Shown piece after piece: positions 8,371 through 31,239 of a stretch of DNA of 64,000 nucleotides. Made by a program: the position numbers and the translations under genes. The stretch covers positions 130,187 to 194,186 of the forward strand of contig JBGSNU010000025.1 in assembly GCA_041739415.1 (NCBI GenBank). Direction: 5' to 3'. The DNA comes from Bdellovibrionales bacterium. GTDB lineage: Bacteria; Bdellovibrionota; Bdellovibrionia; Bdellovibrionales; UBA1609. Positions within the stretch are counted from its first letter, which is position 1, and every line of letters begins with the position of its first letter. Below the pieces are notes generated by a model. The model was not told where the DNA came from. It worked only from the letters and a program-made list of their open reading frames with translations, and did not search any database.

Positions 8371-8419
8371 CTCATCCCCGCCTAATTCCGCCTACTAGAC
8401 GCGCCGCGCACAGCCGCGA

Positions 8420-9614: not shown

Positions 9615-9648
9615 CCCTGGGGATACCCACACGCCCCAGGGTTTTTTT
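9615..9648 (+). terminator. rho-independent terminator after flagellin 2
   Basis: 8-bp stem CCCTGGGG (9615-9622) / CCCCAGGG (9634-9641) followed by T7 (9642-9648). It sits between convergent genes. Confidence 0.7.
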
Positions 9649-11764: not shown

Positions 11765-12598
11765 ATGGGCCTTAGAGTAACTACGAATCTCGCGTCGATT
11801 TCGGCGCAACGGACAATGGCTAGCTCGCAACGTGAAATCCAAAAGAGCTTTTCGCAGCTCTCGAGCGGCAGTCGAATTACCAAAGCCGCGGACGATGCTG
11901 CCGGGCTATCTATAAGTGAAACTTTGAAGTCCACCATCCGTGGCTACGGGCAGGCGCAACGAAACGCCAATGACGGTATCTCCATGGTGCAAGTGTCTGA
12001 AGGTGGTTTGGGAGAAATCTCCAATATTCTCACTCGAATGCGAGAGCTCGGCGTGCAAGCCGCATCGGATACAGTGGGAGATGTGGAACGTGGATTTATT
12101 GACAAAGAAGTTCAGCAGCTGAAGAACGAAATGCAACGTATTGCCAAGACGACTCGCTGGGGAGACCAAGCTTTGCTAGACGGCTCAGGCCAGGAGTACG
12201 CCTTTCAGGTGGATATCAACAACGATGACTTTAACGATCGAATTGCTTTTGATGCGGCTCAACAGGATGCGACGATCGACACGCTTGGGGTCGCAGGCTT
12301 TAACTTCTCGGAGAAGTCCGATGCACGAGAGGCACTTGAAGTGCTTGAATCGGCGCAACGTCAAGTCAACGGCTACCGTGCCAATCTCGGGGCCATTCAA
12401 AACCGATTGATCTCTACGACAGAAAACCTAGGTGTGGCCATCGAGAACTTCTCGTCTGCGAATTCAAGAGTACGAGACACCGATGTCGCTCAAAGCTCAG
12501 CCGAACTGGCGCGCAATAATATTTTGATGAACGCCTCTGTTGGAGTGTTGGCTCAGGCCAATCAACAGCCGGCTTCAGCGCTGCGCCTTATTGGTTAA
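11765..12598 (+). CDS. fliC: flagellin, paralog 3
   Basis: Start is taken at internal ATG 11765 (MGLRVTTNLAS), preceded by AAAGGAGGA. Flagellin N and C domains are present. Highly similar to paralog 4. Confidence 0.9.
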   Translation: MGLRVTTNLASISAQRTMASSQREIQKSFSQLSSGSRITKAADDAAGLSISETLKSTIRGYGQAQRNANDGISMVQVSEGGLGEISNILTRMRELGVQAASDTVGDVERGFIDKEVQQLKNEMQRIAKTTRWGDQALLDGSGQEYAFQVDINNDDFNDRIAFDAAQQDATIDTLGVAGFNFSEKSDAREALEVLESAQRQVNGYRANLGAIQNRLISTTENLGVAIENFSSANSRVRDTDVAQSSAELARNNILMNASVGVLAQANQQPASALRLIG

Positions 12599-12868: not shown

Positions 12869-12895
12869 TAAAGACAATCCCAGACTCGTCGATAG
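12869..12895 (+). promoter_or_regulatory. sigma28-type promoter upstream of flagellin 4
   Basis: TAAA (12869-12872), 15-nt spacer, GTCGATAG (12888-12895), which is 6 of 8 to GCCGATAA. Confidence 0.55.
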
Positions 12896-13791: not shown

Positions 13792-16278
13792 ATGCCAATA
13801 GATCGACCTGTATTGCCCATTGACTGTAGACTTGAGGAGATCGCTGCCCTCATTGCGCGCTCCTCTCGTGTGATCTTGACCGCGGCACCTGGCACGGGCA
13901 AGACCACGCGAATTCCCCCAGCACTGCTTTCGGTGATCCCCGGTAAAATTGCTGTTCTTCAGCCGCGGCGGCTGGCTGCTGTTGCCGCATGTGAGCGCGT
14001 GGCGCAAGAGCAGGGTTGGCGGGTGGGTCAAGAGGTGGGCTACCAAGTTCGCTTTGAATCCAAAATCACATCAGCCACTCGACTGGTTTACATGACCGAT
14101 GCGTTAATGCTCCGGCGCTGGGTAGAAGACCTAGAGCTGAGTCAGTTCTCGTTGATCATTATTGATGAGCTGCACGAGCGCAATTTGCAGCAGGACCTCT
14201 TGCTCGGAGCCATCAAAGAGTTGCAGGAGCTCGGCGCTCCGATAAAATTGCTGTTGATGTCTGCCACTTTGGAATCTCAGGAGCTGCTGAATTTCTTGCC
14301 TGGTGGTGAATGGATAGATGTGGCGGGCGTGAGCTATCCACTCACCGTTCGTCACAGTACCACACCCTTGTCGTTGCAAACGGACTTTGCCTTTATTGAG
14401 CGTATTGTTGGTGCAGTCACAACGGCTTGTGCGGAAACACGTGGCGACGTGCTGGTGTTTTTGCCTGGGGTCGGAGAGATTCGCCGAGTGCAAGAAAAAT
14501 TAGAGTCCAACCGTCTCACTCGCCCGGTGTACCCACTGCATGGAACACTGTCGTTAGCCGAACAAGCCCAAGTGTTGGCCCCAAGTGAGAAACCCCGAGT
14601 GATTTTGTCAACCAATGTGGCTGAGGCCTCCGTGACCGTGCAAGGAGTGGATTTTGTGATCGACTCAGGCATCGCGCGCGTCTCCAATGTAAACTTGACC
14701 TCTGGCTTTTCAACTTTAGAACTTAAGCGGATCTCTTTGTTCAACGCTCGCCAACGGTCAGGTCGTGCCGCGCGTGAGAAAGCCGGAACCTGCTGGCGAC
14801 TTTGGACATCGCATGAAGAGGCCACACAAATTGAGCAGCAAGTTCCCGAATGCATGCGGACGGACCTGAGTGCGGCGTTGTTGCTGCTCGCCCATTCGGG
14901 GCTAAATGACTTTGCCGCGTTTGCCTGGCTCAGTCGGCCACCGGGTCGCTTGCTGGATCTTGCCATTCAGTATTTGCGAAGTCTCGGTGCGCTGGGCGGG
15001 GACAATCGATTGACCCCCTTTGGGCAAAGGCTGTTGCGGTTTCCACTGCCCCCTCGGCTAGCAGCAATGCTGTGTCTGGGTTACGACCCCGAGCTTGCGG
15101 CACGGGTGGCGGCCATTTTAAACGAGCGTGACTTTTTGACGGCAACTTCTACCACGCTCGATCAATGTGATGTCACCTTGCGTTTGCAGACTTTGGTTGA
15201 AGTCGAAAGGCGCGAGCGAGTGCCGGGAGTGAAAGTGCAACTGGCCCACTCCATTTTGCAAACGGCAGAGCAATTGCGGCGTTTGGGGGGAGCGACCGCA
15301 GATACACCTCCGGCACACGCGCGGTCGCTGAAACGCATGCTGCTGCTGACACATGCCGATCGACTTTGTCGTCGGCGGGGGGAAAGTGCAAGAGGTTTGA
15401 TGGTAGGAGGTCGAGGCGTTAAGTTGAGTGCCGAGACCACGGTGACTGAGCGAGAGTTTTTTATAGCTCTACAAGGAGTTGATCTGCCCGGGCAGAATGA
15501 GACCACCGTGAATCTGGCGTGCGGTCTCAACAAGAGTGAAGTTTGTGAAATGTTGGCGGATCACATTCAAGTGAGTGAGAAAATAGAATTTATTGAGTCT
15601 AAGGCCGCTTTTTATTGCTCGCGCGTGCGCTCAGTTTTTGGACTAGCGATCGACGAGCCCACATTGACTCCAGCCCCGCCTGAGCAAGTGCGAGAGCAGC
15701 TGGCCGAACTCTTGCTACAAAAGTGGATGTGGTTGGTCGATAAAAATCTGGCTCTTAAGAGCTGGATGGCTCGATGGGAGCAAATGTGTCAGGTCTCTCC
15801 CGATCTAACGGCCCACTTTGGTGAAGTGCAAATTGCCCAGACCTTGCAAATGGCGGCGTTCGGCAAAACGAAAGTGAGCGAGGTTGTCGATTCCGACCTC
15901 ATGCAGTTTTTGCGGTTGAATGTGCCACCTGAGGTGCTGAGTGTGGTGGATCGAGAGGCACCCACCCATTTTGTTGCACCCACTGGGCATGCCCATGTGA
16001 TTCAGTACACCAGTCATGGGCCGTTTGTGGAGGTTCGTCTACAAGAACTATTTGGTTTAGATGCTAGTCCAAAGCTTCTTTTTGGGAGTGTCCCATTGAG
16101 GTTTCATCTCCTCGCACCGAACTTTCGCCCCGTGCAGGTGACCTCGGATCTCGCAGGATTTTGGACTGGCGCTTATGTAGACGTCAGAAAAGAGCTCCGG
16201 ACTCGCTATCCTAAGCACTCCTGGCCGGAGAACCCTGCAACTGCTAAACCCGAAGCCAAGGGGCGACGCCGGGTTTGA
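13792..16278 (+). CDS. hrpB: ATP-dependent DEAH-box RNA helicase HrpB
   Basis: Helicase motifs APGTGKTT, IIDELHER, MSATLE, TNVAEASVTV and QRSGRAAR. The ~828-aa length and long C-terminal domain are typical of HrpB. Confidence 0.8.
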   Translation: MPIDRPVLPIDCRLEEIAALIARSSRVILTAAPGTGKTTRIPPALLSVIPGKIAVLQPRRLAAVAACERVAQEQGWRVGQEVGYQVRFESKITSATRLVYMTDALMLRRWVEDLELSQFSLIIIDELHERNLQQDLLLGAIKELQELGAPIKLLLMSATLESQELLNFLPGGEWIDVAGVSYPLTVRHSTTPLSLQTDFAFIERIVGAVTTACAETRGDVLVFLPGVGEIRRVQEKLESNRLTRPVYPLHGTLSLAEQAQVLAPSEKPRVILSTNVAEASVTVQGVDFVIDSGIARVSNVNLTSGFSTLELKRISLFNARQRSGRAAREKAGTCWRLWTSHEEATQIEQQVPECMRTDLSAALLLLAHSGLNDFAAFAWLSRPPGRLLDLAIQYLRSLGALGGDNRLTPFGQRLLRFPLPPRLAAMLCLGYDPELAARVAAILNERDFLTATSTTLDQCDVTLRLQTLVEVERRERVPGVKVQLAHSILQTAEQLRRLGGATADTPPAHARSLKRMLLLTHADRLCRRRGESARGLMVGGRGVKLSAETTVTEREFFIALQGVDLPGQNETTVNLACGLNKSEVCEMLADHIQVSEKIEFIESKAAFYCSRVRSVFGLAIDEPTLTPAPPEQVREQLAELLLQKWMWLVDKNLALKSWMARWEQMCQVSPDLTAHFGEVQIAQTLQMAAFGKTKVSEVVDSDLMQFLRLNVPPEVLSVVDREAPTHFVAPTGHAHVIQYTSHGPFVEVRLQELFGLDASPKLLFGSVPLRFHLLAPNFRPVQVTSDLAGFWTGAYVDVRKELRTRYPKHSWPENPATAKPEAKGRRRV

Positions 16279-16293: not shown

Positions 16294-17673
16294 TCATTGC
16301 GGGGTCGGTGGGCTTTGTAAGGTGGACTGTCGATGTTTGTAATATTGATAGTTTTTTTCGGGCAGACGGTATTCCACTTTATTTTTAACGAGGTCCGTGC
16401 AGACACTCAATTCCCCCTCGACACACAGAGCGTGTAACCGGCCCAAGTCGACTCGTGCGGCTGCAGGCGCGCGCTTGCTCGAGCTCGAGGCTTTGCCTGC
16501 GAACTTCTGGTGCGTGGAGTGAATGTTAAACCCGAATAGACTTGCTCCAAGCGTGACCACGGCAGCGCCCGCGACAAACCGCAGCTGCAACCATGCACCC
16601 AATTGCTTTTTAAGTTCAGACTCCATGCCATCGCCGAGGAACAGTGTGTGTATACCGTTTGTCGCCATTTGCCCATGCACTTTCAGCTGGGTTTGTGGTG
16701 CCTGTGTAGCGTCCGCTCGGAGCTCTTTGGCGATCGACACGAAGTCCGTCTCCAGTTTTGCAAATCCCGTTGCTTTCGCCACCTCGCCGGCTTGGCGAAA
16801 GGAGGACTTCGTAATGCTTTCGGCAAAAGCTGCCAGTCCGACCTGTTCAATTGAGGTGATCTCCGCGCGTCGTGTTGTGAGATCTCCGCTGGCATACATT
16901 GGCGAGCCAACTTCAATCCAGCTTTCCACCACACGATAGCTTTTGTCGCTCGGGGAGGGTGGGTAGTGTGGGATCAAAGAAAAAAACATACGGTCATAGA
17001 TGTAAACAAAGATCGTAAGGAAAAAAGCCGGCGAAAGCAGTGCGGTTCGGATGACACGTCGAATGATTCCCATAAAATGGCTGAGGAATCGAATGGGCGG
17101 CTTAAACTCCTTGCCCAAGAGATCATTCTTGAGTTCAGGAGAAGCGTCTTTCCAATATTTGACCTCGCGTTGGTGCAGATGGGTCTCTGCATGGGTCGGG
17201 TCAATTTTGACAACGCCAGTCTCGTCGACAAGGTAAAACGGCAAGCTGTGCACGCGTTTGGCAACCGTCTTCCAGCGCGAAGATTGTCCGTAAAAAAGTA
17301 GAAGGGGTCTGGCGTACTGAACCTCACAGGAGTAATAAACAACTTCTTTTTTATTTCGAATCAATTGCGTGGCACCGGCGGGCCAAGTAAAGCCTTGGAG
17401 TTCAACCAATCCTTGCGCGGCAGTGGCGGCCTTGGAACTTGGTGTATCTTCAATCTGTCGTATTCTGCGGTGCTGTTTGATGGCACGCCAGAAAATCGCC
17501 GCTCCGAAAAATAAGATGACGAGTGACATATGCACGGTAAACAACACTCCATGAGTTAGACATCGCGTGGGACTGTAGAGATGGTATCGGCATTTGGCGC
17601 CAGGCATCACCGAACCAAAGGTCGCGATTTCAAAAAAAAGCTTCAGTTTCTCACCTGAATCCGTCGATAGCAC
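16294..17673 (-). CDS. membrane protein with GIDE-like (MUL1-type) domain, function unknown
   Basis: A TM helix is followed by IEDTPSSKAATAAQGLVELQG, resembling the bacterial GIDE-family signature (DTPTSKI..AAQGYVEL.G). More TM segments occur mid-protein and near the C-terminus. The longest ORF (GTG 17673) leaves only 6 nt before the divergent flaG, so ATG at 17607 is a plausible true start. Confidence 0.45.
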   Translation of the reverse strand: MLSTDSGEKLKLFFEIATFGSVMPGAKCRYHLYSPTRCLTHGVLFTVHMSLVILFFGAAIFWRAIKQHRRIRQIEDTPSSKAATAAQGLVELQGFTWPAGATQLIRNKKEVVYYSCEVQYARPLLLFYGQSSRWKTVAKRVHSLPFYLVDETGVVKIDPTHAETHLHQREVKYWKDASPELKNDLLGKEFKPPIRFLSHFMGIIRRVIRTALLSPAFFLTIFVYIYDRMFFSLIPHYPPSPSDKSYRVVESWIEVGSPMYASGDLTTRRAEITSIEQVGLAAFAESITKSSFRQAGEVAKATGFAKLETDFVSIAKELRADATQAPQTQLKVHGQMATNGIHTLFLGDGMESELKKQLGAWLQLRFVAGAAVVTLGASLFGFNIHSTHQKFAGKASSSSKRAPAAARVDLGRLHALCVEGELSVCTDLVKNKVEYRLPEKNYQYYKHRQSTLQSPPTPQ

Positions 17674-17679: not shown

Positions 17680-18048
17680 ATGAACATCAAAGGACTCTTG
17701 TCTAATCCCATTCTGCCAATCGAACCCAAAGCGCGGGTTGAGGGTGGATTGCGAACACAAACGAGTACTGATCGCGATGCCGATGGTCGGCACCAAGGGC
17801 AAGAAAAAGAGCAAAAGCACAGCCTGAGCCAACAGGAATTTGACGATTGCATGGTTGCACTTGAAGCCAACGCCGGACTTAAATCCAATGGCCTGGTGCT
17901 TAAGGTCGAGCGAGACGAGGGTGTTCGAGTCGTGTTGATACTCGATCCACAGGGCGGCATCGTCCGTCGTCTATCTGAGGCTCAACTCTGGACTGCCACT
18001 CGCGATAAAGACCGCAAGACCGGTAAGATTCTAGACAAAGCGATGTAG
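17680..18048 (+). CDS. flaG: FlaG-like flagellar protein
   Basis: 122 aa, located directly upstream of fliD-fliS. The C-terminal LVLKVERDEGVRVVLILDPQGGIVRRLSEAQL fits the FlaG pattern. Confidence 0.65.
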   Translation: MNIKGLLSNPILPIEPKARVEGGLRTQTSTDRDADGRHQGQEKEQKHSLSQQEFDDCMVALEANAGLKSNGLVLKVERDEGVRVVLILDPQGGIVRRLSEAQLWTATRDKDRKTGKILDKAM

Positions 18049-18108: not shown

Positions 18109-19476
18109 ATGGCAATTTCGTTCGGTGGATTGGGCTCCGGTCTGCCACCAAATATTGTTGAGCAATTGATGGAAGCTGAGCGCATGCCGCTCAAGACTAT
18201 CGAGCGCAACAAAGGCAAGCAAGAGAATCGACTCAAGCTTGTACAAGAGCTTGAAACTAAGCTCACTGCCATCACGGGGACCATTGGCGCCCTCGCCTCT
18301 ACTCGCGGCTTCACAGACATGAAATTAAATTCTGGCGACACCAATGTGGTTCAAGGCGCAGTCGATCCAAACGCAGCCGTCAACGGCAGTTGGAACATTG
18401 AAGTGCTGGAGCTGGCGCAAAAAGCCGCAGCGATCACCAATGGATTTCCCGACAAAGATAAATCGCAGGTAGGGGTGGGATACTTTCGCTTCAAGACACC
18501 CGAGGGCAACAAAGAGGTCTACATCAACGGTGAAAACAACACACTCGAAGGTGTGATGAGTGCCATCAACCGCGCCGGCATTGGAGTCAAAGCCTCGATC
18601 ATGAATGACCGCCGCAATCCTGATGCTCCCTACAAGCTGATGATCACTGGTGAGAACCTGGGAGGAGACAACCAGATCTCCTATCCGACTTTGTACTTTC
18701 TCGATGGTGATCAAGATTTGTATTTTGATGAAGAGCGCGTGGCGAAAAACGGTCGAGTCAAAGTCGATGGCTTTGAATTTGAAATTGGAGATAACAAGGT
18801 CACAGATGTGATTCCAGGAGTCACGCTTGAGCTTAAACAAGCCAATCCTGGAAAGACTGTAAACATCAGCGTCAAAGAGGACCAAGAGGTCGTCTCCGGC
18901 AAGGTCAAATCTTTTGTCGATGGGATTAACGGAGTATTGAGTTTTATCCAGTCGCAAAATGCGATGACCAAAGATACCGATACCTCCTCGACTTTGGGTG
19001 GCGACAGTCTTCTGCGCAATACCGAAAATCGCTTGCGCTCCTTGATCCAAAATCCCCAGATGGGAGTTGGATCTACGGTCACTCGAGTATCTCAACTCGG
19101 CATCGTCTTTACTAGAAACGGGACAATTGAGTTTGACGAGAAGCGCTTCAATGAAACCTTGGCTCGGGATCCTCAGTCGGTGCAAAAGTTTTTAGCCGGA
19201 GATGGATTTTCCACCGGCTTCATTGCCAGCCTCAAGCGGGAGGTCAGCACGCTGATGAATTCAGCATTTGGTCCAGTGGCCGTACGCAAGCGATCGCTGC
19301 AAGACAAAATTGGTCAGATGAATCAACAGATTGAAAACAAAGAGCGGCAGCTGACAAAAAAAGAAGAGGTGCTGCGCAACAAGTTTGCTCGACTAGAGGA
19401 GACGATCAGTCGGATGAAAGGCCAGGCGGGTGCCGTCCAAGCTATGGGCATGGGTGGAGGACAAGGCATTGGCTAG
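18109..19476 (+). CDS. fliD: flagellar filament cap protein FliD
   Basis: N-terminal ISFGGLGSGLPPNIVEQLMEAERMPL, a coiled-coil C-terminus and the flaG-fliD-fliS context. Confidence 0.85.
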   Translation: MAISFGGLGSGLPPNIVEQLMEAERMPLKTIERNKGKQENRLKLVQELETKLTAITGTIGALASTRGFTDMKLNSGDTNVVQGAVDPNAAVNGSWNIEVLELAQKAAAITNGFPDKDKSQVGVGYFRFKTPEGNKEVYINGENNTLEGVMSAINRAGIGVKASIMNDRRNPDAPYKLMITGENLGGDNQISYPTLYFLDGDQDLYFDEERVAKNGRVKVDGFEFEIGDNKVTDVIPGVTLELKQANPGKTVNISVKEDQEVVSGKVKSFVDGINGVLSFIQSQNAMTKDTDTSSTLGGDSLLRNTENRLRSLIQNPQMGVGSTVTRVSQLGIVFTRNGTIEFDEKRFNETLARDPQSVQKFLAGDGFSTGFIASLKREVSTLMNSAFGPVAVRKRSLQDKIGQMNQQIENKERQLTKKEEVLRNKFARLEETISRMKGQAGAVQAMGMGGGQGIG

Positions 19477-19539: not shown

Positions 19540-19962
19540 ATGAGGCATATGAAGAACGGGCATTTAAAATACAAGCAGACCTCAGTACAGAGTGCGAGTC
19601 GAGAGAAGCTTCTCTTGCTTCTGTATGAAGGTGCCATTCGCTTTATGAAGCAGGCGCTGATAGCCATTGATAGCAAAGATATTGCCGGTCGCGGATTGAA
19701 CATTGGTCGCGCCTTCGACATCGTCAATGAGCTCAACAATACGCTGAATCACGAGGCCGGCCCAGAGATCGCTAAAAATCTTGAGCAGTTATACATCTTT
19801 ATTACGGAGCAACTCACCCAGTCGAACGCGACCGGGCAGAGAAAACCGCTAGAGGATGCGCTGAAGATTATGGAGACACTGTATGTGGGTTGGGTAGAGG
19901 CAATTGAGAAGATTAAGCGTGAAGAACTGTCAGTCAACAAGGCAAGCGTCGGTAAGGGCTAG
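19540..19962 (+). CDS. fliS: flagellin-specific chaperone FliS
   Basis: YKQTSVQSASREKLLLLLYEGAIRFMKQA and LYIFITEQL are FliS hallmarks. ATG at 19549 is an alternative start. Confidence 0.85.
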   Translation: MRHMKNGHLKYKQTSVQSASREKLLLLLYEGAIRFMKQALIAIDSKDIAGRGLNIGRAFDIVNELNNTLNHEAGPEIAKNLEQLYIFITEQLTQSNATGQRKPLEDALKIMETLYVGWVEAIEKIKREELSVNKASVGKG

Positions 19963-19970: not shown

Positions 19971-20396
19971 ATGGAAACTATATTAAATTTACTTAAGGAC
20001 AAGAACTACCATTTGGATAAATTTCGCCAACTCAACGAAACCGAGCTGTTGAATTTCAGCGAGGGAAATTTTGACAACCTCGAGTCATTTTATCAAGCGC
20101 GCGAAACTTTGCTCGATCTCATTCGCTGCATTGATCGATTGGTCGAGGCCGCATCGGCGGCACAGCCCGGCCCTTTGCCAGTTTTAGAGAGTGAAAAAAG
20201 GCAGCTGATTCAGTCGATGAGTGAGAAAAATGAACTGGTCACTCACATCCTCGGACTCGACCTGCAGATTCTGTCAGTTATTGAATTGGCAAAGTCGAAC
20301 ATCATCAAAGAACTTCGTCAGGTTCAAGGCGCCAAAAAGGCAGTTGGTGCCTATAAGTCTGGTGAGGCACCGAACAAACTCGATGAGAAAGTGTGA
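19971..20396 (+). CDS. hypothetical helical protein (possible FliT/FlgN-like chaperone, unproven)
   Basis: Strong RBS AGGAGGG, 141 aa, helical composition, and a position immediately after fliS. No diagnostic motif. Confidence 0.5.
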   Translation: METILNLLKDKNYHLDKFRQLNETELLNFSEGNFDNLESFYQARETLLDLIRCIDRLVEAASAAQPGPLPVLESEKRQLIQSMSEKNELVTHILGLDLQILSVIELAKSNIIKELRQVQGAKKAVGAYKSGEAPNKLDEKV

Positions 20397-20520
20397 CGAG
20401 ACTTTGACGCTGGACTGGTGATTCCGTCCCGACTTGCGTTGGGAAAATCAGGTAGGACAGAGTTTAAAGCCGTTTCAACTTTGGCACCACGGTTGCTCTG
20501 GTAAGTTCCAGGAGGCATCC

Positions 20521-21432
20521 GTGGAAGTCTTAAGACCCTTGTCGAGTCATCGACCTACAACTCAGCCAGTTGACATCTCACCGCCGAGTTCAATTCATCA
20601 GGGACCCCCAATTCAGCTTGAGTTGGAGGATCTTTACTGCATTTTGCAAATTTCTCCGCACGACAGTGTCATCGCTATGGAGTTGGCGCGCCAGCTGGTC
20701 GAGATGAACAGGCATGACGAAGCACTCAAAATTCTTCGCAGTGTGATCAAAATCGACTCTCGATTTGAGTCTGTTTACGCTCTGGCACAGGTCGAGTACG
20801 CTTTAGATCAACTGGATTCATCCCTCCAACACTTTCATGAAGCACTACTAATTGCTGGTGGTGAGCGGCCGGAGCTCTTTGAGATTTTCCGCACCATCGG
20901 CAATATTTTTGTGCGCCAGGGTGACCTCGAGACTGCCGAAGAAAATTACTTTAAGGCGCATCGATTGAAAATGGACTCAGATGTGGTTTGGGTGAATCTC
21001 GGCACTGTCATGATACATCGACAGAATTGGACAGAGGCGGTGGACCGCTTTCGTCGGGCTTTGGCAGTTAACCCAAGCAACGACAAGGCCTGGATCGGTC
21101 TTGCGATTGGCCACCGCATGTTAAGCGATGTGGAACTCGCATGGGGAAATTTAGAAGCCGCAGTTCAGCACAACCCACTGAACGACGTTGCCCTGGTTTT
21201 GGCCCTAGAGTGGGGCGCACAAGAGGGGCGAGAGTTTAGAGTTCTGGAGATGATTCGAACTTTTTTGATCAAGGGCGGTTGGAACGAAAAATTGAGCCTA
21301 GCCTTTTGTTGGCTGAGTTGGCGTCGTGGCGACCAAGATCTCGCACGCCTTGAGCTTGAACGGTTAACGGCTGTGAATCCTCAGAACCTCCGCGCACTGG
21401 AAATGTTAAGCGAAATGCGGGCGGTCTTGTGA
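20521..21432 (+). CDS. TPR-repeat protein
   Basis: Repeated TPR-like units (AEENYFKAHRLKMD, AVDRFRRALAVNPSNDKAW, LERLTAVNPQNLRAL). Start is taken at GTG 20521, which lies 6 nt after AGGAGG; the longest ORF starts at 20434. Confidence 0.7.
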   Translation: MEVLRPLSSHRPTTQPVDISPPSSIHQGPPIQLELEDLYCILQISPHDSVIAMELARQLVEMNRHDEALKILRSVIKIDSRFESVYALAQVEYALDQLDSSLQHFHEALLIAGGERPELFEIFRTIGNIFVRQGDLETAEENYFKAHRLKMDSDVVWVNLGTVMIHRQNWTEAVDRFRRALAVNPSNDKAWIGLAIGHRMLSDVELAWGNLEAAVQHNPLNDVALVLALEWGAQEGREFRVLEMIRTFLIKGGWNEKLSLAFCWLSWRRGDQDLARLELERLTAVNPQNLRALEMLSEMRAVL

Positions 21433-22046
21433 TTGAAAGAGTGCAGTCTCGCAGTGGAAAAGCGGTCATCAAAATAAACGGACGGCATTTGGCGTCGGTC
21501 GTAGAGCCGGTGCTAGAAGCGCGGGCCTGGCTTAGTCGGCGTCGTGAATTTTTAGATCGCGTAAAAACAGTTTTTGTTTTAGGAGCCGGATCTGGCTATC
21601 ACATTCACGAGTTGAGTCTCAATACAGCGGCTCGAATTTTGGTGATTGAGCGGAACTCCGAGTTGTGTGAAGCCGTAAAATCCATTCATCGATTTGATCG
21701 GAGCCGAATTCGCTTTTTGGAGCTAGATCGACCACGGGAATTGCGCGCCTGTGAAGATGTGCGCGTCGGCCTGTGCGGCAGCTTCGTAGTCTTGCAACAT
21801 GCGCCCTCGCAGGCCATGGACCCAGATTTTTATCGCGACTGTCTCGCCCTTCTCGTGGCACGCGATTGGGGAAATCTAAATTGGCAGTGGCAGCTGAACG
21901 GCTTTGCCCCGCTGGAGTCAGAGACTCGAATTCAGTCGCAACGAGACCCCCTGTCTTTGCTGGACCTTGAGCAAACGGAGCTCGTGCAAAATTCGGAAGA
22001 GCGCGAGCGAATGCTGATCAAAGCGTTGAGAGAGTTGTTAAAATGA
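21429..22046 (+). CDS. stand-alone Maf (motility accessory factor) N-terminal-like protein
   Basis: SRSGKAVIKINGRHLASVVEPVLEARAW...VFVLGAGSGYHIHEL resembles the N-terminal region of Maf/PseE-type flagellin glycosyltransferases (s..G.ptl.i.g..lhS.ydP..EA..w ... v.G.GlGyh..eL). Only 205 aa, with no DUF115 catalytic part. GTG start overlaps the upstream stop. Confidence 0.45.
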   Translation: MIERVQSRSGKAVIKINGRHLASVVEPVLEARAWLSRRREFLDRVKTVFVLGAGSGYHIHELSLNTAARILVIERNSELCEAVKSIHRFDRSRIRFLELDRPRELRACEDVRVGLCGSFVVLQHAPSQAMDPDFYRDCLALLVARDWGNLNWQWQLNGFAPLESETRIQSQRDPLSLLDLEQTELVQNSEERERMLIKALRELLK

Positions 22047-23671
22047 AAATCTTGGTGATGAGTCTTTTGCGGATGGGCGATTTTGTGCAGATTATCCCTG
22101 TTCTCAATGGTCTAAAAAGTCAGTTCGCTAAATGTGACATCGATGTGTTGGTGTACAAGTCCACGGCGAGTCTCCAGCCCATGCTGCCCTTGGTGAAACA
22201 CTGGCATGTACTCGATCGCGAGTTGCTGCAAACAGCCTTGGGTCGAGCCGATGTGCCGTTGCTCACTAGCTTTTCGCTCTTGAAAGAGCAGATGGATGAA
22301 ATCAACAGCCACAACTATGATTTAATTATAAATTTGACCCAAACCGTGCAGTCCGGCTGGTTGGCTGGCTACCTTGAGGCTGGTCGACGTTTGGGATTGG
22401 TCACGAATGCCGCTGGCCAATCGCAATTTCATTCTCCCTGGTTTCGCCATCTCAATGAAAATTTGCGACCGGGTTCACCGGATGTGTTTCACTATGCCGA
22501 TCTCTTTTTCTACGGCAGTGGCTTAACAGGTGCGAGTCGGCAATGGAGTTTGCGCGAAACTAGGCATGGCTACGCTGAGGTTATGGCTCTGAATTTGCCA
22601 CCTTCAAATCAGCGCATTGTCTTGCAGTGCCTCACTTCAGACGTCAAAAAAAATTGGTCAGAGGAAAACTGGGTGAGTTTGGTGCAGCGGCTGCGCAAGT
22701 TGCGGCCACACGCTCAGTTCGTGGCTCTGGGGTCACCACACGAGGCGCCAGCCATCGCCAAGACAATTGAACGAGCGGCGGGATGCGGAGTGGTTTTGTA
22801 TCCAGCCATTGTCTCCCTCGAGGGGGCCCATTCACTTTTGCTACGCACGCAGCTTCTGCTAACTGGCGATACGGGGATAAAGCATCTGGCGTTGGCCTCC
22901 AATGTAAAAATTGTCGAGTTGAGCCTTGGCTCCAGCGACCTTTATCGAACCGGTGCCTACGCTCCTGACTCTCTCATTTTGCGAGCGCAAACGGAGTGTG
23001 GACCTTGCCCCCATTCCTCGCCCTGCTCTCAGGTTGAACACACTTGTGGCAGTCAACTTAAGCCCGAGGTTGTGGCAGAGGCCACACATCTGCACTTGCA
23101 AGACGATTGGACCGCTTTGAGCGAACTGGCGCGGCAAAACACTCCTATGCAGTTGTTTAGAACGCGCGTGCTGAAGAGCGGATTTTGGTGGCCTCTGAAT
23201 TTGGCGGGAGTGCAGCGGCAACAAACAGTCCGGCAGCTGATCAACCAGGTCGGGTGGAAGCTGCAGCTGGGATTTAACGAAGTCAGTCCCCTGTTGGCGA
23301 TGGGCTCAGAGTCCCTAAGTTTGCGCCGAGAATTCGATTCCATTTTGCCTCAAGAAAGTGGAGCTGAGCTCCAGCAAGAGCTGCGTTTGCTCGAGTCCGA
23401 AGAAGAACTGGTCGAGACCCGAGCCTTTGAACTCCTAGAGACGGTCAACCGCCGCGCTCCGGCGCTTGGCCAGATTCAAGACTTTCTAAAGAGCCGCGGT
23501 GTTGCCACTTTGTCAAACGATTGGCTTGCAACTGCGCCGCCCGACACAACACAACTCGTGGTGAATATCGAAGGTCTGCGGCGGCTTCAGTCTGAACTTC
23601 TGAGCCAAGGCCGTCTGGCTCAACTCAAATCAAAATTAATTCGAAATTTGCGCACGCAAACGATGGAGTGA
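22043..23671 (+). CDS. GT9-family (heptosyltransferase-like) glycosyltransferase with ~200-aa C-terminal helical extension
   Basis: N-terminal MKILVMSLLRMGDFVQIIPVLNGLK, nucleotide-sugar motif LLTGDTGIKHLALA and a Cys cluster CGPCPHSSPCSQVEHTC. At 542 aa it compares with the ~330-350 aa typical of GT9. There is an ATGA overlap with the upstream gene. Confidence 0.75.
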   Translation: MKILVMSLLRMGDFVQIIPVLNGLKSQFAKCDIDVLVYKSTASLQPMLPLVKHWHVLDRELLQTALGRADVPLLTSFSLLKEQMDEINSHNYDLIINLTQTVQSGWLAGYLEAGRRLGLVTNAAGQSQFHSPWFRHLNENLRPGSPDVFHYADLFFYGSGLTGASRQWSLRETRHGYAEVMALNLPPSNQRIVLQCLTSDVKKNWSEENWVSLVQRLRKLRPHAQFVALGSPHEAPAIAKTIERAAGCGVVLYPAIVSLEGAHSLLLRTQLLLTGDTGIKHLALASNVKIVELSLGSSDLYRTGAYAPDSLILRAQTECGPCPHSSPCSQVEHTCGSQLKPEVVAEATHLHLQDDWTALSELARQNTPMQLFRTRVLKSGFWWPLNLAGVQRQQTVRQLINQVGWKLQLGFNEVSPLLAMGSESLSLRREFDSILPQESGAELQQELRLLESEEELVETRAFELLETVNRRAPALGQIQDFLKSRGVATLSNDWLATAPPDTTQLVVNIEGLRRLQSELLSQGRLAQLKSKLIRNLRTQTME

Positions 23672-23673
23672 AT

Positions 23674-23853
23674 ATGAGCAAAAACGAACAGAACTTAAAA
23701 AAGACTCTGGAGCGACTTGAAGCGTCCACTAAAAAAGTGATTGAGACGCGCGGCTATACAACAGATGCAAAGAATCTAAAAATTTTAGAGGAAATGATCC
23801 GGGAGCAATTGACCAATGCGAATACTCGTTCTGCAGCTCGCTCGATTCGGTGA
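23674..23853 (+). CDS. small helical hypothetical protein between the two GT9 genes
   Basis: ATG at 23674 lies 5 nt after GGAG. About 59 aa, charged and helical. Its end overlaps the next gene start by 38 nt. Confidence 0.35.
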   Translation: MSKNEQNLKKTLERLEASTKKVIETRGYTTDAKNLKILEEMIREQLTNANTRSAARSIR

Positions 23854-25504
23854 CATTTTTCAAACTTGGCCCACAATCAAGGCGTTAAGGCGGCAAAATC
23901 CTGCAGCGGAAGTGCATATTCTGGTGCGGGAGCGCTTTGCTTCAGCCATGGTGGGCCTTGAGGGTGTGCATGTGCATGTGCTCCCCACGGCTCAAATCCT
24001 AGGCCCGGTCCTCGCCAGCGGTGACACCGATGCAGCTCTCGCGCAGATGCAGCAAGTGATGGCTTCGCTTCGATTGACACCGTTCTCGCAGATCATAAAT
24101 CTTTCGTTTTCACCGCTCTCGAGCTATCTCACAGAGGCTTTAGCGGAGGAGACCACCAAGATCTCGGGATACACCAGGCACAGCGATGGCTATTTGGCGA
24201 TTCCCGATGAAACCAGTGCTTATTTTTATGCTCAAGTGGGTGTGGGCCGGTTCAATCGCTACCATGTGACCGAATTGTTTGCAGCCGTAGCTGGGGTGGA
24301 GTTGGCTGTCTCCGACTTCTCGATGGAGCGACCAATTCATACGGCCCGTCAGGGTGTGGTGGTGCATCTCGGAGCAAGTCAGCAGAGCAAGGCTTATCCA
24401 CCTGAAATGTGGATCGATGTTTTATGTCAACTGTTGAAACAAGCACCAGATCTGCGAATCACGCTCATCGGTAGTCTTGAGGACAGAGCTTTGGCCGCAA
24501 CCGTGTGTCGACAAGTGAACAACTCCATGTTGAAAAATCTAGTGGGGGAGACCCAGCTGCAAGAGCTGTTTGAGGTGATTGGACAGTCGCGCTTACTAAT
24601 AGGTGCTGACAGTGCACCAGTTCACATAGCAAGTTTAGTGCAAACTCCAGTTTTGAATCTCTCGTGTGCACAGGTCAATTTTTGGGAGACGGGCCCCTGC
24701 TCGGCGGATAGCCGCGTGCTGTATGCCGACGATCTTTCAGAAATTTCACCCAGTTGTGTGGCAGAAGAGACAGCTTGGATTTTAGCAGAGCAACCGTTGA
24801 CACAGGCGATCGCTCACCGCATGAAAACGCTCGTGCCTTACAGTGTGCATCAGCAGTTCAACGACGAATTCGAATGGCAGTTGATTCAGGCGCTGTATGT
24901 GAGCGGGGATTATCCCCAGCTGCAAACATCTGCAGATCAGTTGGCCATTCGACGACTGCATGAACTGACCGAGATGGCTCTCGAAGTTATGGCCCAGTGG
25001 CATGTGAAGGACGCGCGGGCGAGACACACTCAGACATTGGATCAAGTGGATACGCTCATCTTGCAAGTTGGCCACTGCGCTCCGGCGCTGCAGCCGTTGC
25101 TCGAATGGTTTCAGACGCAGCGGCTACGGCTCGGACCTGCGACACCTGAGCAAACACTCGAGAAAACTCAGCAGATATTCAACGAATTCAGTTTGATCAC
25201 ATCAATCTATTTGCCGGCAGAGAATCAAGCGGAGCTTTTACAAACGGCAATCAACCTTTGTTTAGAGTGTTCGGTTGAGTTGCGTGAGTACAACTTTGCT
25301 AAAATTGAGTCGCACTTTAACACTCTTGTGTCTTCGATTCACCAGTTGGCGAGCAGCTCGACCAATGTCCAACCCGAGAGTTCGTGGACAAAAGTTCTTG
25401 AGGGATTTAAACACAATATGGAGCAGCAAGATTACATTGCTCTCGCCGATTGCCTTGAATGGGAGTTGGCACCGTCACTTGAAGAGCGTGTACGGACGGG
25501 TTAA
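23816..25504 (+). CDS. second GT9-family glycosyltransferase with ~200-aa C-terminal helical extension
   Basis: N-terminal MRILVLQLARFGDIFQTWPTIKALRRQNP, motif LLIGADSAPVHIASL, 562 aa. Confidence 0.7.
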   Translation: MRILVLQLARFGDIFQTWPTIKALRRQNPAAEVHILVRERFASAMVGLEGVHVHVLPTAQILGPVLASGDTDAALAQMQQVMASLRLTPFSQIINLSFSPLSSYLTEALAEETTKISGYTRHSDGYLAIPDETSAYFYAQVGVGRFNRYHVTELFAAVAGVELAVSDFSMERPIHTARQGVVVHLGASQQSKAYPPEMWIDVLCQLLKQAPDLRITLIGSLEDRALAATVCRQVNNSMLKNLVGETQLQELFEVIGQSRLLIGADSAPVHIASLVQTPVLNLSCAQVNFWETGPCSADSRVLYADDLSEISPSCVAEETAWILAEQPLTQAIAHRMKTLVPYSVHQQFNDEFEWQLIQALYVSGDYPQLQTSADQLAIRRLHELTEMALEVMAQWHVKDARARHTQTLDQVDTLILQVGHCAPALQPLLEWFQTQRLRLGPATPEQTLEKTQQIFNEFSLITSIYLPAENQAELLQTAINLCLECSVELREYNFAKIESHFNTLVSSIHQLASSSTNVQPESSWTKVLEGFKHNMEQQDYIALADCLEWELAPSLEERVRTG

Positions 25505-25513: not shown

Positions 25514-27415
25514 GTGCAACCGCAAGCTGTTCAACTTTTATCCCGGCGGATTCAAAACCCACCTCCCTGGTGGGAGAATCTTAAATTGGCCAGTGTCGAG
25601 GCGTTGCCAGGTGCACACTGGCTTGTTGGCTCCCAACTTCATCCGCAAGCCTCAGTGATCGTGGTACCCAGAGCCGAATTCGTAGACATGCGGCGAGAGG
25701 AATTTTCGCAGTCAAAGTCCTATGTCATTGTGGACGCGGCTTGGACCCCGCAATCGATCAAGCGAGCTTTAAGCTTTGTGCGCGGCGCTTTGCTTATGGA
25801 CTCAAGTCTAGACAACTCCGAACACCTGAAGGTTCTGCAAGTGGCTTTGGCTCGACAACATGAGCGAGAGCAGTACAGCGCCATGATGCAAGAGATGCGA
25901 ACTCAGAATAAACGTATTTTAGAGATGAACACCCAACTCGAGCAATTGGTGCTCGAGCGGACCAATACGGCGGGCGATAGTCGCAAAGCCAGTCAGCGAA
26001 ATGTCGCCCAAGTTCGAAGAATCATCGGCTTTATCAAGGAGATATCTAGCGTTCTGGAAATCAGAGATATGCTCCCCGTGATTCGTCGGGCCGTGAAAGA
26101 GTACCATCAGCTGCAGCCGCCGATTTTATTTGTGCCACATGGTGAGGGCTTCGGTGATTTTTACTATCTGCGTGGATCGCAAGTCATTCGTGCCAACAAA
26201 CGGGGCCGATGGGAATCGTCCCCTCGGATTCGAATCAACGATCCCGTCGATAGGCATTTTTTAGCGGATGCGCTCGGTCGACCCTTTGGCAAAGTTCTGC
26301 GTTTTCCGCTCCTGACGGGTCGGCACAAAATGGAGCCCGCACGCTCGCCCCTCTTGTTCTTTGAATTTGACCTCGGCGTTCATGCGATGGAAGAGCTCGT
26401 GTCGACTTTGAGTGAAACTCTGCAACCGGTGAGTTGGGCGCTCGACCGCTTGGTGTTGGAGCAAGAGTTAAAAAGCACGTCTCGCGATTGGGAGATGACC
26501 TTTGATGGGCTCTCTGAGCCGATTGCGATTCTAGATAAAGCGGGTAATATTTTGCGGGCGAATACCCATTGGCCAAAGGAATTCACGCAAGAGCTGCCGC
26601 CAGAAGGTGAGCAATTGCGGGTGCTCGATCAGCTGTTTGTAGTCGAGAAGTACCCCATTCAAATGGAACTGCAATTGGAGCCGATCTCATGGGTTGTTTA
26701 CTTACGTGATGAAACACGTTCGCAAAAACTCAAGAGCCATTCGGTGCATGTCGAGAAAATGTCGGCCATCGGTCAGCTGGCCGGTCACATTGCGCACGAG
26801 CTCAACAATCCACTCACTGGAATTCGCTCACTCACCCAAGTGCTGTTGACAGAAACCGCAGGGCAATTGCAGCAAGATCTAACCGAAGTGGAGAGAGCTG
26901 CGGGACGCTGCCAATCGATTATCACCAATCTGCTTGAATTCTCTAAAGGGGATTTGGATCACAAAGTGCAGGTTGTGGATTTGAACGAAATCACCATGCG
27001 GACTCTACCTTTTTTGAAATCTGCGACAGGGCGCTTTCGCAATGACATTCGACTGACCTCGCAGGAGCTGTGGGTTAAGGTCGAGCCCCAGCTCATGCAG
27101 CAGGTGATTTTTAATCTCATCAACAATGCGTGCCAAGCGATGTCTGAAGTTGGAGAACTGGTGGTGCAAACCGAGCAAACGGCAAAATGGGCCGTGCTCG
27201 AAGTCCGCGACACCGGCCCGGGTATTGACCGAGCCCTGCGGGAGAAAATATTTGAACCGTTTTTTACAACAAAAGTAGACGGTGAGGGCACTGGCTTGGG
27301 GCTGAGTCTGAGTCGAGATTTTGTGCGACAGTTTGGCGGAGAGCTCGAGTGTGAGAGCGAGCTGGGAATGGGCTCAGTCTTTCGAGTGCGTTTGCCGTTG
27401 GGAGTTGAGGCATGA
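25514..27415 (+). CDS. cytoplasmic sensor histidine kinase (coiled-coil + PAS-like + HisKA + HATPase)
   Basis: H-box GHIAHELNNPLTGI, N-box FNLINNACQA, and G-boxes RDTGPGI and GTGLGLSLS. A PAS-like segment is DWEMTFDGLSEPIAILDKAGNILRAN. No TM helix is seen. Confidence 0.85.
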   Translation: MQPQAVQLLSRRIQNPPPWWENLKLASVEALPGAHWLVGSQLHPQASVIVVPRAEFVDMRREEFSQSKSYVIVDAAWTPQSIKRALSFVRGALLMDSSLDNSEHLKVLQVALARQHEREQYSAMMQEMRTQNKRILEMNTQLEQLVLERTNTAGDSRKASQRNVAQVRRIIGFIKEISSVLEIRDMLPVIRRAVKEYHQLQPPILFVPHGEGFGDFYYLRGSQVIRANKRGRWESSPRIRINDPVDRHFLADALGRPFGKVLRFPLLTGRHKMEPARSPLLFFEFDLGVHAMEELVSTLSETLQPVSWALDRLVLEQELKSTSRDWEMTFDGLSEPIAILDKAGNILRANTHWPKEFTQELPPEGEQLRVLDQLFVVEKYPIQMELQLEPISWVVYLRDETRSQKLKSHSVHVEKMSAIGQLAGHIAHELNNPLTGIRSLTQVLLTETAGQLQQDLTEVERAAGRCQSIITNLLEFSKGDLDHKVQVVDLNEITMRTLPFLKSATGRFRNDIRLTSQELWVKVEPQLMQQVIFNLINNACQAMSEVGELVVQTEQTAKWAVLEVRDTGPGIDRALREKIFEPFFTTKVDGEGTGLGLSLSRDFVRQFGGELECESELGMGSVFRVRLPLGVEA

Positions 27416-27777
27416 AGATTTTGGTCGTTGATGATGAACCGTTGGTTCGATTGTCCTTGCGGCGTTCGTTAGAAAAGTCGGGTCACGATGTTCGAGTGGC
27501 TGAAGATGGCCAGTTCGGCCGCGAGATCTGGGACTCCTGGATGCCAGATTTGGTGTATCTAGATGTCTTAATGCCCAGGCTGTCTGGTCCAGATCTTCTC
27601 AAATTGCAGCGTGGGCACACGGCCGCATCCGGCAAAGTGATCTTGATGAGCGCTTTCACCGGTGAATATGATTTGAACAAGGCAAAGGCGTTGGGCGCCG
27701 ACCTGTTTGTGCTCAAACCCTTTGAAGATATTTTTGCTATTGTGAAGATGGGTGAGGATTTGGTGCATGCCCAATAA
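27412..27777 (+). CDS. single-domain (CheY-like) response regulator
   Basis: MKILVVDDEPL, phospho-acceptor context DLVYLDVLMP and FVLKPF. 121 aa with no output domain. ATGA overlap with the kinase gene. Confidence 0.85.
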   Translation: MKILVVDDEPLVRLSLRRSLEKSGHDVRVAEDGQFGREIWDSWMPDLVYLDVLMPRLSGPDLLKLQRGHTAASGKVILMSAFTGEYDLNKAKALGADLFVLKPFEDIFAIVKMGEDLVHAQ

Positions 27778-28132
27778 ATCGAATGGTCGCGCCATTAAAG
27801 TCAAAGTGAAACCCTATCCGTTTTCTGGCGAGCTTGAGCAAGCGGGGGCCAAATCGTCTATAAATATTCTTTATGTGTCCACTTTAGGTTTCGTAGCGGG
27901 TTTGGGCAGTCAGTTTGTCAAAGTCGGTGATCGCTATATGGTCTCATTCGTTTTGCCGACATTTGACCAAAGCATAATGTGCTCAGTTCGCGTGGTAAAA
28001 ACATATGACCGTTCACTTGAGAACTCGGCCCAAAAAGTAGAACGCATGGGCGAATTTCATTTTGAAAAATTGACCGATGAGCACAAGGCTCGTATTGTGT
28101 CGTTTATGGCGGCTATCGGCCAAACTAAGTGA
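27767..28132 (+). CDS. PilZ-like small beta-barrel protein with degenerate c-di-GMP motifs (tentative)
   Basis: The layout resembles PilZ: YVSTLGF sits where (D/N)xSxxG is expected, and the ending is VVKTYD...FHFEKLTDEHKARIVSFM. The RxxxR motif is not intact (GRAIKV). Start ATG 27767 lies 8 nt after TGAGGA. Confidence 0.35.
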   Translation: MPNKSNGRAIKVKVKPYPFSGELEQAGAKSSINILYVSTLGFVAGLGSQFVKVGDRYMVSFVLPTFDQSIMCSVRVVKTYDRSLENSAQKVERMGEFHFEKLTDEHKARIVSFMAAIGQTK

Positions 28133-30417: not shown

Positions 30418-31239
30418 ATGTTGAGGCCATTCTCCATGCAGGAGTTGGTCGGCAACGAGGGGGCTCTGGTGTCTATCTGGACTTTGTCTCAGGTGTTGAT
30501 AAATTTAATTTTTGCTGCCGGCTTTTTTGCGATGTGGTGGCGACTGAAGCGTCCCCCTCAAGATGATCCGCGTCTAAGTCGTGGCTTACAATTGCTCCAG
30601 ACAAAAATTACCGTGCTGGAGGATTTATCTGACCGCACCGAGGCCCAAGTGAAACAACTGAGCGGTCTGCTCGATCACAAAACGCGAATCGTGCAAAATA
30701 AAATTCTCGAAGCTGAACAGCAAATGCTGAAGATTGATCATTCCATGCACAAAAGCCTCGAGGTGGCTGAGATTTTTCAAGATAAAATTCCGCACCACGA
30801 AATTTTAGAACGGCAGCGCACGGCTGAATATGTGAAGGCCGCTCGCATGGCCCACTCCGGTCTCAGTGTGGATGCAATTGCCGAGAGTGTTCACCTGCCC
30901 CGAGAGCAAATTGAGCTGATCGCAAAATTTAATCGCGACCAATTGATGTTCGATGAGTCGGCCTTGCCCGCTTGGGCCAATCGCCCAACTGCAGAGTCAT
31001 CACCTCCAGTTGAGTCACCTGCTGGAGCACACCACGGAATGCTCAGTAGTTTGGATTTTTCAGATCAGCTCGAATCCACTAAGCCGGATATGACCCAAGT
31101 GACTAAAATTGAGGATGAGTTCAAACTTGCAGTACAAAGAGCCAAAGCCCAAGCCAACCCCCTGGTTCAGGCCCAAGAAGCTCAGTCTAAGCCCGTTGTG
31201 CGCAAAGTGATTTTTCCGAAGATTGAAAAGACGCAGTAG
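30418..31239 (+). CDS. hypothetical membrane-anchored coiled-coil protein (DUF2802-like C-terminal HTH-like segment, tentative)
   Basis: One TM helix (VLINLIFAAGFFAMWW), a coiled coil, then AARMAHSGLSVDAIAESVHLPREQIELIAKF. Confidence 0.5.
   Translation: MLRPFSMQELVGNEGALVSIWTLSQVLINLIFAAGFFAMWWRLKRPPQDDPRLSRGLQLLQTKITVLEDLSDRTEAQVKQLSGLLDHKTRIVQNKILEAEQQMLKIDHSMHKSLEVAEIFQDKIPHHEILERQRTAEYVKAARMAHSGLSVDAIAESVHLPREQIELIAKFNRDQLMFDESALPAWANRPTAESSPPVESPAGAHHGMLSSLDFSDQLESTKPDMTQVTKIEDEFKLAVQRAKAQANPLVQAQEAQSKPVVRKVIFPKIEKTQ

Follow-up and report, generated by a model that had tools for sequence, protein, structure and literature searches.

The window analysed here is a 64,000 nt stretch of contig JBGSNU010000025.1 from a Bdellovibrionales bacterium. 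It contains a flagellar gene array which, on the same strand, runs directly into genes for a TPR protein, a small protein resembling the N-terminal domain of the flagellin-modifying Maf enzymes (ORF3), and two long glycosyltransferases of family GT9 (GT9-1 and GT9-2). An earlier sequence-only reading had proposed that six open reading frames (ORFs) following fliS form a flagellin-modification module, and our ORF listing reproduced all six at the same coordinates, after fliS and on its strand. The flagellar array and the module, all on the + strand, comprise the following features.

flaG-like gene: 17680..18048, + strand; first gene of the co-directional flagellar array; weak NCBIfam FlaG match (E=0.057)
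fliD (filament cap): 18109..19476, + strand; PF02465 and PF07195 found in the L001 and L002 orthologues; tblastn synteny
fliS (flagellin export chaperone): 19540..19962, + strand; PF02561 at 122.6 bits and TIGR00208 at 84.7 bits, both above cutoff
ORF1, FliT/FlgN-like candidate: 19971..20396, + strand; 141 aa
TPR protein: 20434..21432, + strand; 332 aa; TTG start, true start uncertain
ORF3, Maf-N-like: 21429..22046, + strand; 205 aa
GT9-1: 22043..23671, + strand; 542 aa; PF01075 at 72.9 bits
ORF5, small helical protein: 23668..23853, + strand; 61 aa
GT9-2: 23816..25504, + strand; 562 aa; PF01075 at 58.1 bits
GT9-2 C-terminal segment, derived from a ~205-aa helical gene: 25300..25504 (approximate), + strand; hhalign and locus comparison
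Soluble histidine kinase: 25514..27415, + strand; Pfam HisKA and HATPase_c after an uncharacterised N-terminal region of ~390 aa
Single-domain response regulator: 27412..27777, + strand; PF00072 in orthologues; overlaps the kinase gene
Weak PilZ-like ORF: 27752..28132, + strand; PilZ E=0.016, below threshold; found in only 33 loci

Overlaps of 4 nt join the TPR gene to ORF3 (21429-21432), ORF3 to GT9-1 (22043-22046) and GT9-1 to ORF5 (23668-23671), and ORF5 overlaps GT9-2 by 38 nt (23816-23853). The start of ORF1 is spaced 8 nt from fliS. The first two of these junctions had been read correctly from the sequence; the third had been placed at 23669-23676, and ORF5 had been described as about 59 aa long. 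Homologues under purifying selection were found for every gene of the module, in numbers from dozens to hundreds, and all are therefore real genes. Base composition is even over the region, so nothing points to a recent island. A Pfam scan that covered nearly all window ORFs of 110 aa or more found neither a nucleotide-sugar synthesis gene, as the sequence-only reading had also found, nor an autotransporter gene, and inspection by eye revealed no signal peptide or membrane segment in the module proteins. Four flagellin genes, each coding for about 277 aa, lie upstream of the module and motAB lies downstream.

The GT9 enzymes and their helical tails

The assignment of both long proteins to GT9 was upheld, as their scores against PF01075 (Glyco_transf_9) exceed the gathering score of 22. 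As had been noticed before, they keep the family N-terminus, MKILVMSLLRMGD in GT9-1 and MRILVLQLARFGD in GT9-2, and the donor motif, GDTGIKHLA and ADSAPVHIA, respectively. The two share 23% identity, confined to the catalytic domain. Residues 1-316 of GT9-1 align to Escherichia coli WaaC (phmmer E=6.6e-9), with D13, the phosphate-binding lysine K202/203 (TSDVKKNW), E234 (P-H-E) and D276-T-G-x-K-H (D276-T-G-I-K-H) in aligned positions. These catalytic and donor residues are at least 90% conserved among 79 orthologues of GT9-1, and in GT9-2 the same level of conservation was found for D13, K192, D265-S266 and W-E-T-G-P (290-294) among 71 orthologues. With such conservation both enzymes look catalytically competent.

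The AlphaFold2 (AF2) model of GT9-1 (pLDDT 88.7, pTM 0.88) has a GT-B core that ends near residue 352; a beta-hairpin follows, and a bundle of helices (392-541) packs on the core. The residues beyond the GT9 domain number about 190-220 in each enzyme, which agrees with the roughly 200 extra C-terminal residues described earlier, and in GT9-1 this tail is modelled with confidence as the hairpin and bundle. The top Foldseek matches of GT9-1 were 3TOV (a Veillonella GT9), WaaC and WaaF, at E ~1e-13 to 1e-14, and no solved structure in that comparison covered the helical domain. TibC, a GT9-related enzyme that heptosylates protein, came at rank 36 with E ~4e-6 against 2e-14 for 3TOV and WaaC. The tail of GT9-1 varies in length, and in some Bdellovibrio genomes the whole protein has only 384-421 aa.

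Several candidate origins of the helical tails were tried and rejected. Homology to FliS or to ORF1 received an hhalign probability below 1%, and for the Maf C-terminal domain or any other family, PDB and Pfam profile searches gave only designed helical bundles and noise. A match between the tail of GT9-1 and that of long GT9-2 proteins (hhalign 91.6%) disappeared when the short GT9-2 tail or the separate ORF described below was compared instead, and may be an artefact of helical composition.

The fold matches bear on a first alternative, that both GT9s act on the lipopolysaccharide (LPS) core, or on a different glycolipid of the envelope, at the time when the flagellum is assembled, so that the flagellar sheath becomes enriched in a distinct glycoform, targeted by timing rather than by location. 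We regard this as less likely than the reading favoured below, though as a serious rival to it. It agrees with the catalytic domain, whose closest resemblance in sequence and fold is to the Veillonella enzyme and to heptosyltransferases I and II of LPS synthesis, and with a cysteine cluster in GT9-1 (C319, C322, C328, C335; CxxC...C...C), each residue of which is kept in 74 of 79 orthologues and which GT9-2 lacks. Such a cluster is carried by many LPS-type GT9 enzymes. The scores against the heptosyltransferase I, II and III models (HepI, HepII and HepIII) speak for something else: with NCBIfam TIGR02193/TIGR02195/TIGR02201, GT9-1 reached 73.6/44.1/51.4 bits and GT9-2 67.7/45.5/64.8 bits, far under the cutoffs of 185.3/134.6/170.2, and the proteins have 542 and 562 aa, about 200 more residues per enzyme, against ~320-350 aa for the single-domain enzymes. 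We accordingly rejected both as equivalogs of these families. The basic patch R60/R63/K64 of WaaC, which we take to be the residues that bind Kdo, is likewise not conserved in GT9-1, where G67, D70 and V71 align.

GT9-2 had been called over-long. It is indeed long in the window, but part of the excess is owed to a gene fusion. In 40 loci a GT9-2 of ~485 aa is followed by a separate helical ORF of ~205 aa and then by the kinase, while in 21 loci, the window included, GT9-2 has 540-590 aa and is directly followed by the kinase. Because the last ~80 residues of the long form match the C-terminal half of the separate ORF (hhalign 93.8%, E=1.8e-7), the extra length of the window protein is, as judged by this alignment, partly a lineage-specific fusion of the ~205-aa gene. 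The separate ORF, as found in L004, L019, L022 and other loci, conserves E38, C49, N54, E63, D174 and E177 and matched nothing in Pfam or the PDB. Its copy in L004 carried a precomputed DUF8042 label, which profile searches did not reproduce.

Partner proteins of the module

The window ORF3 itself falls below threshold for the Maf N-terminal family PF20157 (Maf_flag10_N), with 21.1 bits against 23.5 and residues 36-79 only. At the level of the protein family a Maf-N-like assignment was supported: 33 of 52 diverse members match PF20157 at E<=0.01 (best 2.7e-7), and matches to methyltransferase families were far fewer. Searches among 1.84 billion representative proteins returned 1136 matches to this stand-alone family of ~205 aa at E<=0.001, and the best 150 of them were nearly all ~190-235 aa long, save a few short fragments. 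The gene context was the same for all four family members that were traced to contigs. In the AF2 model of ORF3 (pLDDT 84) a beta-hairpin at the N-terminus accompanies a Rossmann core of four strands, with spermidine synthase and catechol O-methyltransferase (COMT) as nearest folds. Conserved features are GxGxG, H58, an acidic residue where beta2 ends, and a C-terminal LRELVK. The literature describes the N-terminal domain of Maf as a degenerate Rossmann fold of four strands in which methyltransferase motifs are weak, and gives it no known function (PMC11339370), and the predicted fold of ORF3 matches that description; the solved Maf structure was absent from the sequence and fold match lists of ORF3. 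We take ORF3 to be a member of a stand-alone family with a remote relation to the N-terminal domain of Maf. A complete S-adenosylmethionine-dependent methyltransferase was rejected, because strands 5-7 of the usual fold are missing from the model, which has only four Rossmann strands; ORF3 may still bind an adenine nucleotide.

Conservation in the ORF3 family is highest in the last ~30 residues (DLEQTELVQNSEERERML.KALRELVK), which were modelled with low confidence. The terminal LRELVK, with the acidic helix preceding it, has the look of a docking element for a partner, which may be the TPR protein.

Pfam profile searches gave strong support to the TPR assignment, with several TPR models above threshold, and the protein is a cytoplasmic candidate for a substrate or partner adaptor. 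The 141-aa helical ORF1 had also been counted as a part of the modification module. It rather appears to be a FliT/FlgN-like export-chaperone candidate and would then belong to a fliD-fliS-fliT unit, outside the module, since 30 of 33 orthologues match FliT and 13 of 33 match FlgN at E<=0.01, all below the gathering score (the window protein against Pfam FliT: E=6.5e-4, 20.9 bits, gathering score 29.5). ORF5 is a conserved helical protein of 57-67 aa, present in 43-44 loci with T27, G29, Y30, E46 and Q47 conserved, and is translationally coupled to both GT9 genes.

Conservation of the operon in Bdellovibrionales

A pattern scan with one genome per species gave 135 relatives of GT9-1, of which we considered the best 80. 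These came from Bdellovibrionales, Pseudobdellovibrionaceae, Bdellovibrionaceae or Oligoflexia, except for two metagenome-assembled genomes (MAGs) named 'Proteobacteria bacterium'. The window organism itself belongs to the Bdellovibrionales group, and its closest GT9-1 relatives are only ~50% identical. Synteny was counted after tblastn of all window proteins onto the GT9-1 loci.

fliS upstream of GT9-1: 56/57 informative species-level genomes
GT9-2 downstream of GT9-1: 68/69
Histidine kinase downstream: 58/58 informative loci, L055 included
ORF3/GT9-1 overlap: 58/59 (4 nt in 55)
TPR/ORF3 overlap: 44/63
GT9-1/ORF5 4-nt overlap: 32/42
ORF5/GT9-2 38-nt overlap: 33/39
Response regulator/kinase overlap: 41/58

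The conserved order after fliS is TPR, Maf-N-like, GT9-1, small ORF, GT9-2, histidine kinase and response regulator. The conserved unit thus runs on beyond the last of the six ORFs of the sequence-only reading, to take in the soluble histidine kinase and the response regulator downstream (58/58). The overlaps persist though the protein identity between genomes is only ~30%, and junctions so tightly coupled at this divergence indicate that the gene products form a co-translated complex. The survey also answered the question of location, in that the orthologues sit next to fliS in nearly all informative genomes, and none of the fetched loci had recognisable LPS-core genes beside the module.

Two MAG loci depart from this arrangement. 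In L055 ('Proteobacteria bacterium BJ13', 1-12303) fliD/fliS, ORF5 and GT9-2 are not nearby, and the neighbours are PilZ proteins, a response regulator-PilZ fusion and RadA-like and ExoD genes. In L070 (a Bdellovibrionaceae MAG, 1442-6536) an insert of ~5 kb lies between the FliT-like and TPR genes, so that the module and fliDST are separated.

No neighbours of the module are more constant than the kinase and regulator, and in L055, which lacks fliDS, they still accompany TPR, ORF3 and GT9-1. This constancy suits a second alternative, in which the module glycosylates, or just binds, a protein other than the filament, as part of a regulatory circuit with the kinase and regulator that controls late flagellar expression or the switch from motility to growth. 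Listeria GmaR, a glycosyltransferase and anti-repressor in one, would be the model for it. A kinase without a membrane segment and with a large uncharacterised N-terminal region, together with the weak PilZ-like ORF that follows, would suit a circuit of this kind; we doubt that the PilZ-like ORF is a member of the module. The strong conservation of the full set of catalytic and donor-binding residues in both GT9s points instead to real sugar transfer, and the kinase is tied to the enzymes by adjacency only. We judge this regulatory reading to be improbable.

Published data from Bdellovibrio bacteriovorus add to the genomic picture. In strain HD100, fliD and fliS are bd0611 and bd0612 (PMC9140294), whereas a life-cycle proteome calls FliS Bd0611 (PMC12546842). 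In that proteome FliS, Bd0613, Bd0615 and the DUF2802 protein Bd0627 fall into one abundance cluster, Bd0613 and Bd0615 are detected as proteins, Bd0613 is up at 4-5 h, flagellar proteins in general are up from 4 h, as progeny build new flagella, and the kinase is Bd0620 (PMC12546842). The run of accessions from FliS to the DUF2802 protein fits the gene order of the window, and on position only Bd0613 and Bd0615 would be the orthologues of ORF1 (FliT-like) and ORF3. Bd0613-Bd0619 were not mentioned in the text of the literature searched.

A third alternative is that the genes are unrelated to flagella, inherited in this order in a stable region of the chromosome, and that the enzymes build some other cytoplasmic glycoconjugate. 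The downstream housekeeping genes (rsmD, coaD and the aminotransferase gene), which are equally syntenic, and L055, with its module away from fliDS, would be expected in that case. The small gaps from fliS onwards and the overlaps kept at such low identity are harder to reconcile with it, as are the Maf-N-like and FliT-like proteins within the block and the way in which the HD100 positional orthologues of ORF1 and ORF3 track FliS abundance. Moreover, no terminator-like site above chance was detected between fliS and the module, in scans where promoter and terminator counts did not rise above those of shuffled controls. Mere inherited adjacency therefore seems to us very improbable.

Known glycosylation systems and the proposed role

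Of the characterised enzymes, the LPS heptosyltransferases WaaC (HepI) and WaaF (HepII) are the best matches of the module GT9s in sequence and fold. They have in common the GT-B fold, the N-terminal M-K/R-I-L-V...G-D with Asp13, and the donor Lys, Glu and D-T-G-x-x-H. Unlike WaaC and WaaF, the module enzymes have a helical bundle of ~200 extra C-terminal residues and remain far below the equivalog cutoffs, and they are encoded in a flagellar operon with TPR and Maf-N-like partners, not in an LPS core locus; the basic acceptor patch of WaaC is not conserved.

TibC and Aah, the bacterial autotransporter heptosyltransferases (BAHT), are GT9-related as well and transfer heptose from ADP-heptose onto Ser/Thr of protein in the cytoplasm. 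TibC forms a dodecameric ring and has a Cys4 metal site (iron finger), to which the conserved cysteine cluster of GT9-1 may be compared. Membership in this group was rejected: there was no sequence match at E<=0.01 and the Foldseek match was far weaker than that of WaaC. The scanned window ORFs, unlike the TibC/Aah systems, include no autotransporter gene, and the accessory proteins differ.

The Maf/PseE enzymes (motility accessory factors) are cytoplasmic flagellin modifiers encoded in flagellar loci, and the sugars that they transfer are nonulosonic acids. Their degenerate N-terminal Rossmann domain is the closest family to ORF3, and their C-terminal domain is all-helical, as the GT9 tails are helical, although no similarity was detected between the tails and solved structures, Maf included. 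None of the six proteins matches PF01973 (MAF_flag10), so that in contrast to Maf a GT9 would be the catalyst; the part resembling the N-domain is a separate polypeptide, and genes of a CMP-sugar pathway are not found nearby. In FlmG and GmaR a TPR protein-binding part and a GT-B catalytic part are combined in one protein, which acts on several small flagellins. Here the TPR protein, a candidate flagellin binder, is separate, the glycosyltransferase family is GT9, and there are two enzymes and extra small subunits. The TPR domain of Caulobacter FlmG binds flagellins (PMC7591256). For this reason, and with ORF3 being related to the Maf N-terminal domain, the partners resemble parts of flagellin glycosylation systems, and by analogy the module resembles FlmG and Maf in its logic, with a protein-binding part and a glycosyltransferase in a flagellar locus.

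The sequence-only reading had called this a glycosylation system of a type not described, which is too strong, as partial precedents exist. For enterobacterial flag-2 loci, GT9 genes that belong to the variable region have been predicted to glycosylate flagellin (PMC6993521), and heptose was found by mass spectrometry on Ser/Thr of FliC, the flagellin of enterotoxigenic E. coli (ETEC) H10407 (PMC5000012). Both are precedents without a demonstrated enzyme-substrate pair. The flag-2 genes, compared here by description only, are variable cargo and not an order-wide operon like the module, and no TPR, Maf-N-like or helical-tail architecture has been reported for them.

The interpretation that we favour, tentatively and with a probability of about 0.42, is a Bdellovibrionales-specific module, embedded in the flagellar operon, for the cytoplasmic glycosylation of flagellar proteins with an ADP-heptose-like donor. 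The module would be produced at the same time as FliD, FliS and FliT, which are late flagellar proteins. The TPR protein and ORF3 would serve as adaptor subunits, ORF3 as a subunit of GT9-1, next to two GT-B enzymes with helical C-terminal domains, of which GT9-2 would also work with ORF5 and with the fused or separate helical partner. One or a few ADP-heptose-like sugars would then be placed on Ser/Thr of a flagellar structural protein, most likely the multiple ~277-aa flagellins, before flagellar type III export. The soluble histidine kinase and the response regulator encoded next to the module may link the modification to regulation. The analysis establishes that the genes are real, which domains they encode, that catalytic residues are conserved, and that synteny and translational coupling hold across the order; which protein accepts the sugar, which donor supplies it and how the subunits interact is what we infer from these. 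A more far-reaching version, an undescribed machine for the heptosylation of flagellin or other flagellar proteins in which the Maf core is replaced by GT9, the Maf-N-like and TPR parts are separate subunits, and a hard-wired kinase and regulator report the state of modification or assembly, seems to us doubtful.

The sequence-only reading had also suggested a housekeeping donor such as ADP-heptose, and this idea fits what is reported of HD100. That strain has an ADP-heptose synthase (Bd0720) and epimerase (Bd3536), and GT9 heptosyltransferases elsewhere in the genome, Bd1504 (annotated HepII) and Bd2366 (PMC12546842). In HD100 at least, the flagellum-linked pair would therefore be additional to housekeeping enzymes, with the donor available, and the idea that the module GT9s are the sole LPS heptosyltransferases of the organism is disfavoured.

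A number of observations weigh against glycosylation of flagellar proteins by the module. The catalytic domain of GT9-1 is closer to LPS HepI/HepII (Foldseek E ~1e-14) than to TibC (~4e-6), and for the helical C-terminal domains no match was found to any known domain that binds flagellin or to the C-terminal domain of Maf. The flagellins of strain 109J (274-282 aa) run at 29-31 kDa as discrete spots on 2D gels (PMC2791853), so any glycan on them must be small. No report of flagellin glycosylation in Bdellovibrio was found in the literature searched. Downstream, rsmD, coaD and the aminotransferase gene are just as syntenic as the module, and conserved adjacency alone is therefore no proof of shared function. 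Finally, in L055 the genes for TPR, ORF3 and GT9-1, with the helical ORF and the kinase gene, stand at a site where fliDS is not nearby.

The lack of a large flagellin mass shift on published gels also suits modification of LPS in step with sheath growth, as does the sheath itself. The flagella of Bdellovibrio-like predators are sheathed where examined, and the LPS of the B. bacteriovorus sheath is reported to differ from the bulk LPS (review PMC7175336). The reported differences, however, are in fatty acids and not in sugars (PMC7175336). The canonical GT9 genes elsewhere in HD100 also argue against an LPS role, and the partners of the module enzymes, a cytoplasmic TPR protein and a Maf-N-like protein with FliT and FliS as neighbours, are typical of protein-directed systems.

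If flagellin glycosylation is confirmed, GT9, probably with ADP-heptose, would be a fourth type of flagellin-glycosylating enzyme beside the Maf, FlmG and GT2/GT4 types, and the orphan Maf N-terminal domain would gain a testable role as a detachable subunit. Predatory bacteria, under development as living antibiotics, would moreover prove to carry a hitherto hidden modification in their sheathed flagella. If LPS is instead changed during sheath growth, the module would be the first genetic handle on the composition of the sheath versus the outer membrane. Either outcome is directly testable in the genetically tractable B. bacteriovorus HD100.

Some further features of the window deserve mention. 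Between two pairs of flagellin genes lies a gene (9647-11341, - strand) for a 564-aa protein with C-terminal TPR repeats, and a similar gene for 561 aa stands beside flagellins in L002 and L003; the 564-aa protein is a second flagellum-linked TPR protein. Downstream of the module the genes rsmD and coaD, an aminotransferase gene and that of a DUF2802 protein (30418-31239) are co-directional with it. The PilZ-like ORF, the DUF2802 protein and the presence of Bd0627 in the FliS cluster are hints that the flagellum-related block extends past rsmD-coaD. Upstream of the first and fourth flagellin genes there are sigma-28-like promoter matches at 7336-7362 (TAAA-N15-GACGATAA) and 12869-12895 (TAAA-N15-GTCGATAG). 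Another GTCGATAG box, near 17660, lies ~10 nt before the annotated ATG of flaG, too close to interpret, which suggests a wrongly placed start for flaG or for the opposing ORF (start at 17673). The position of the flaG-like gene before fliD is kept in 48 loci, and its orthologue in L086 has a weak PF03646 FlaG match. Between the flagellin genes and flaG-fliD are genes for a HrpB-type DEAH helicase (13792-16278, - strand) and a GIDE-like membrane protein (16294-17673, - strand), and the position of the helicase gene is kept in the closest relatives (e.g., L002, L005 and L027).

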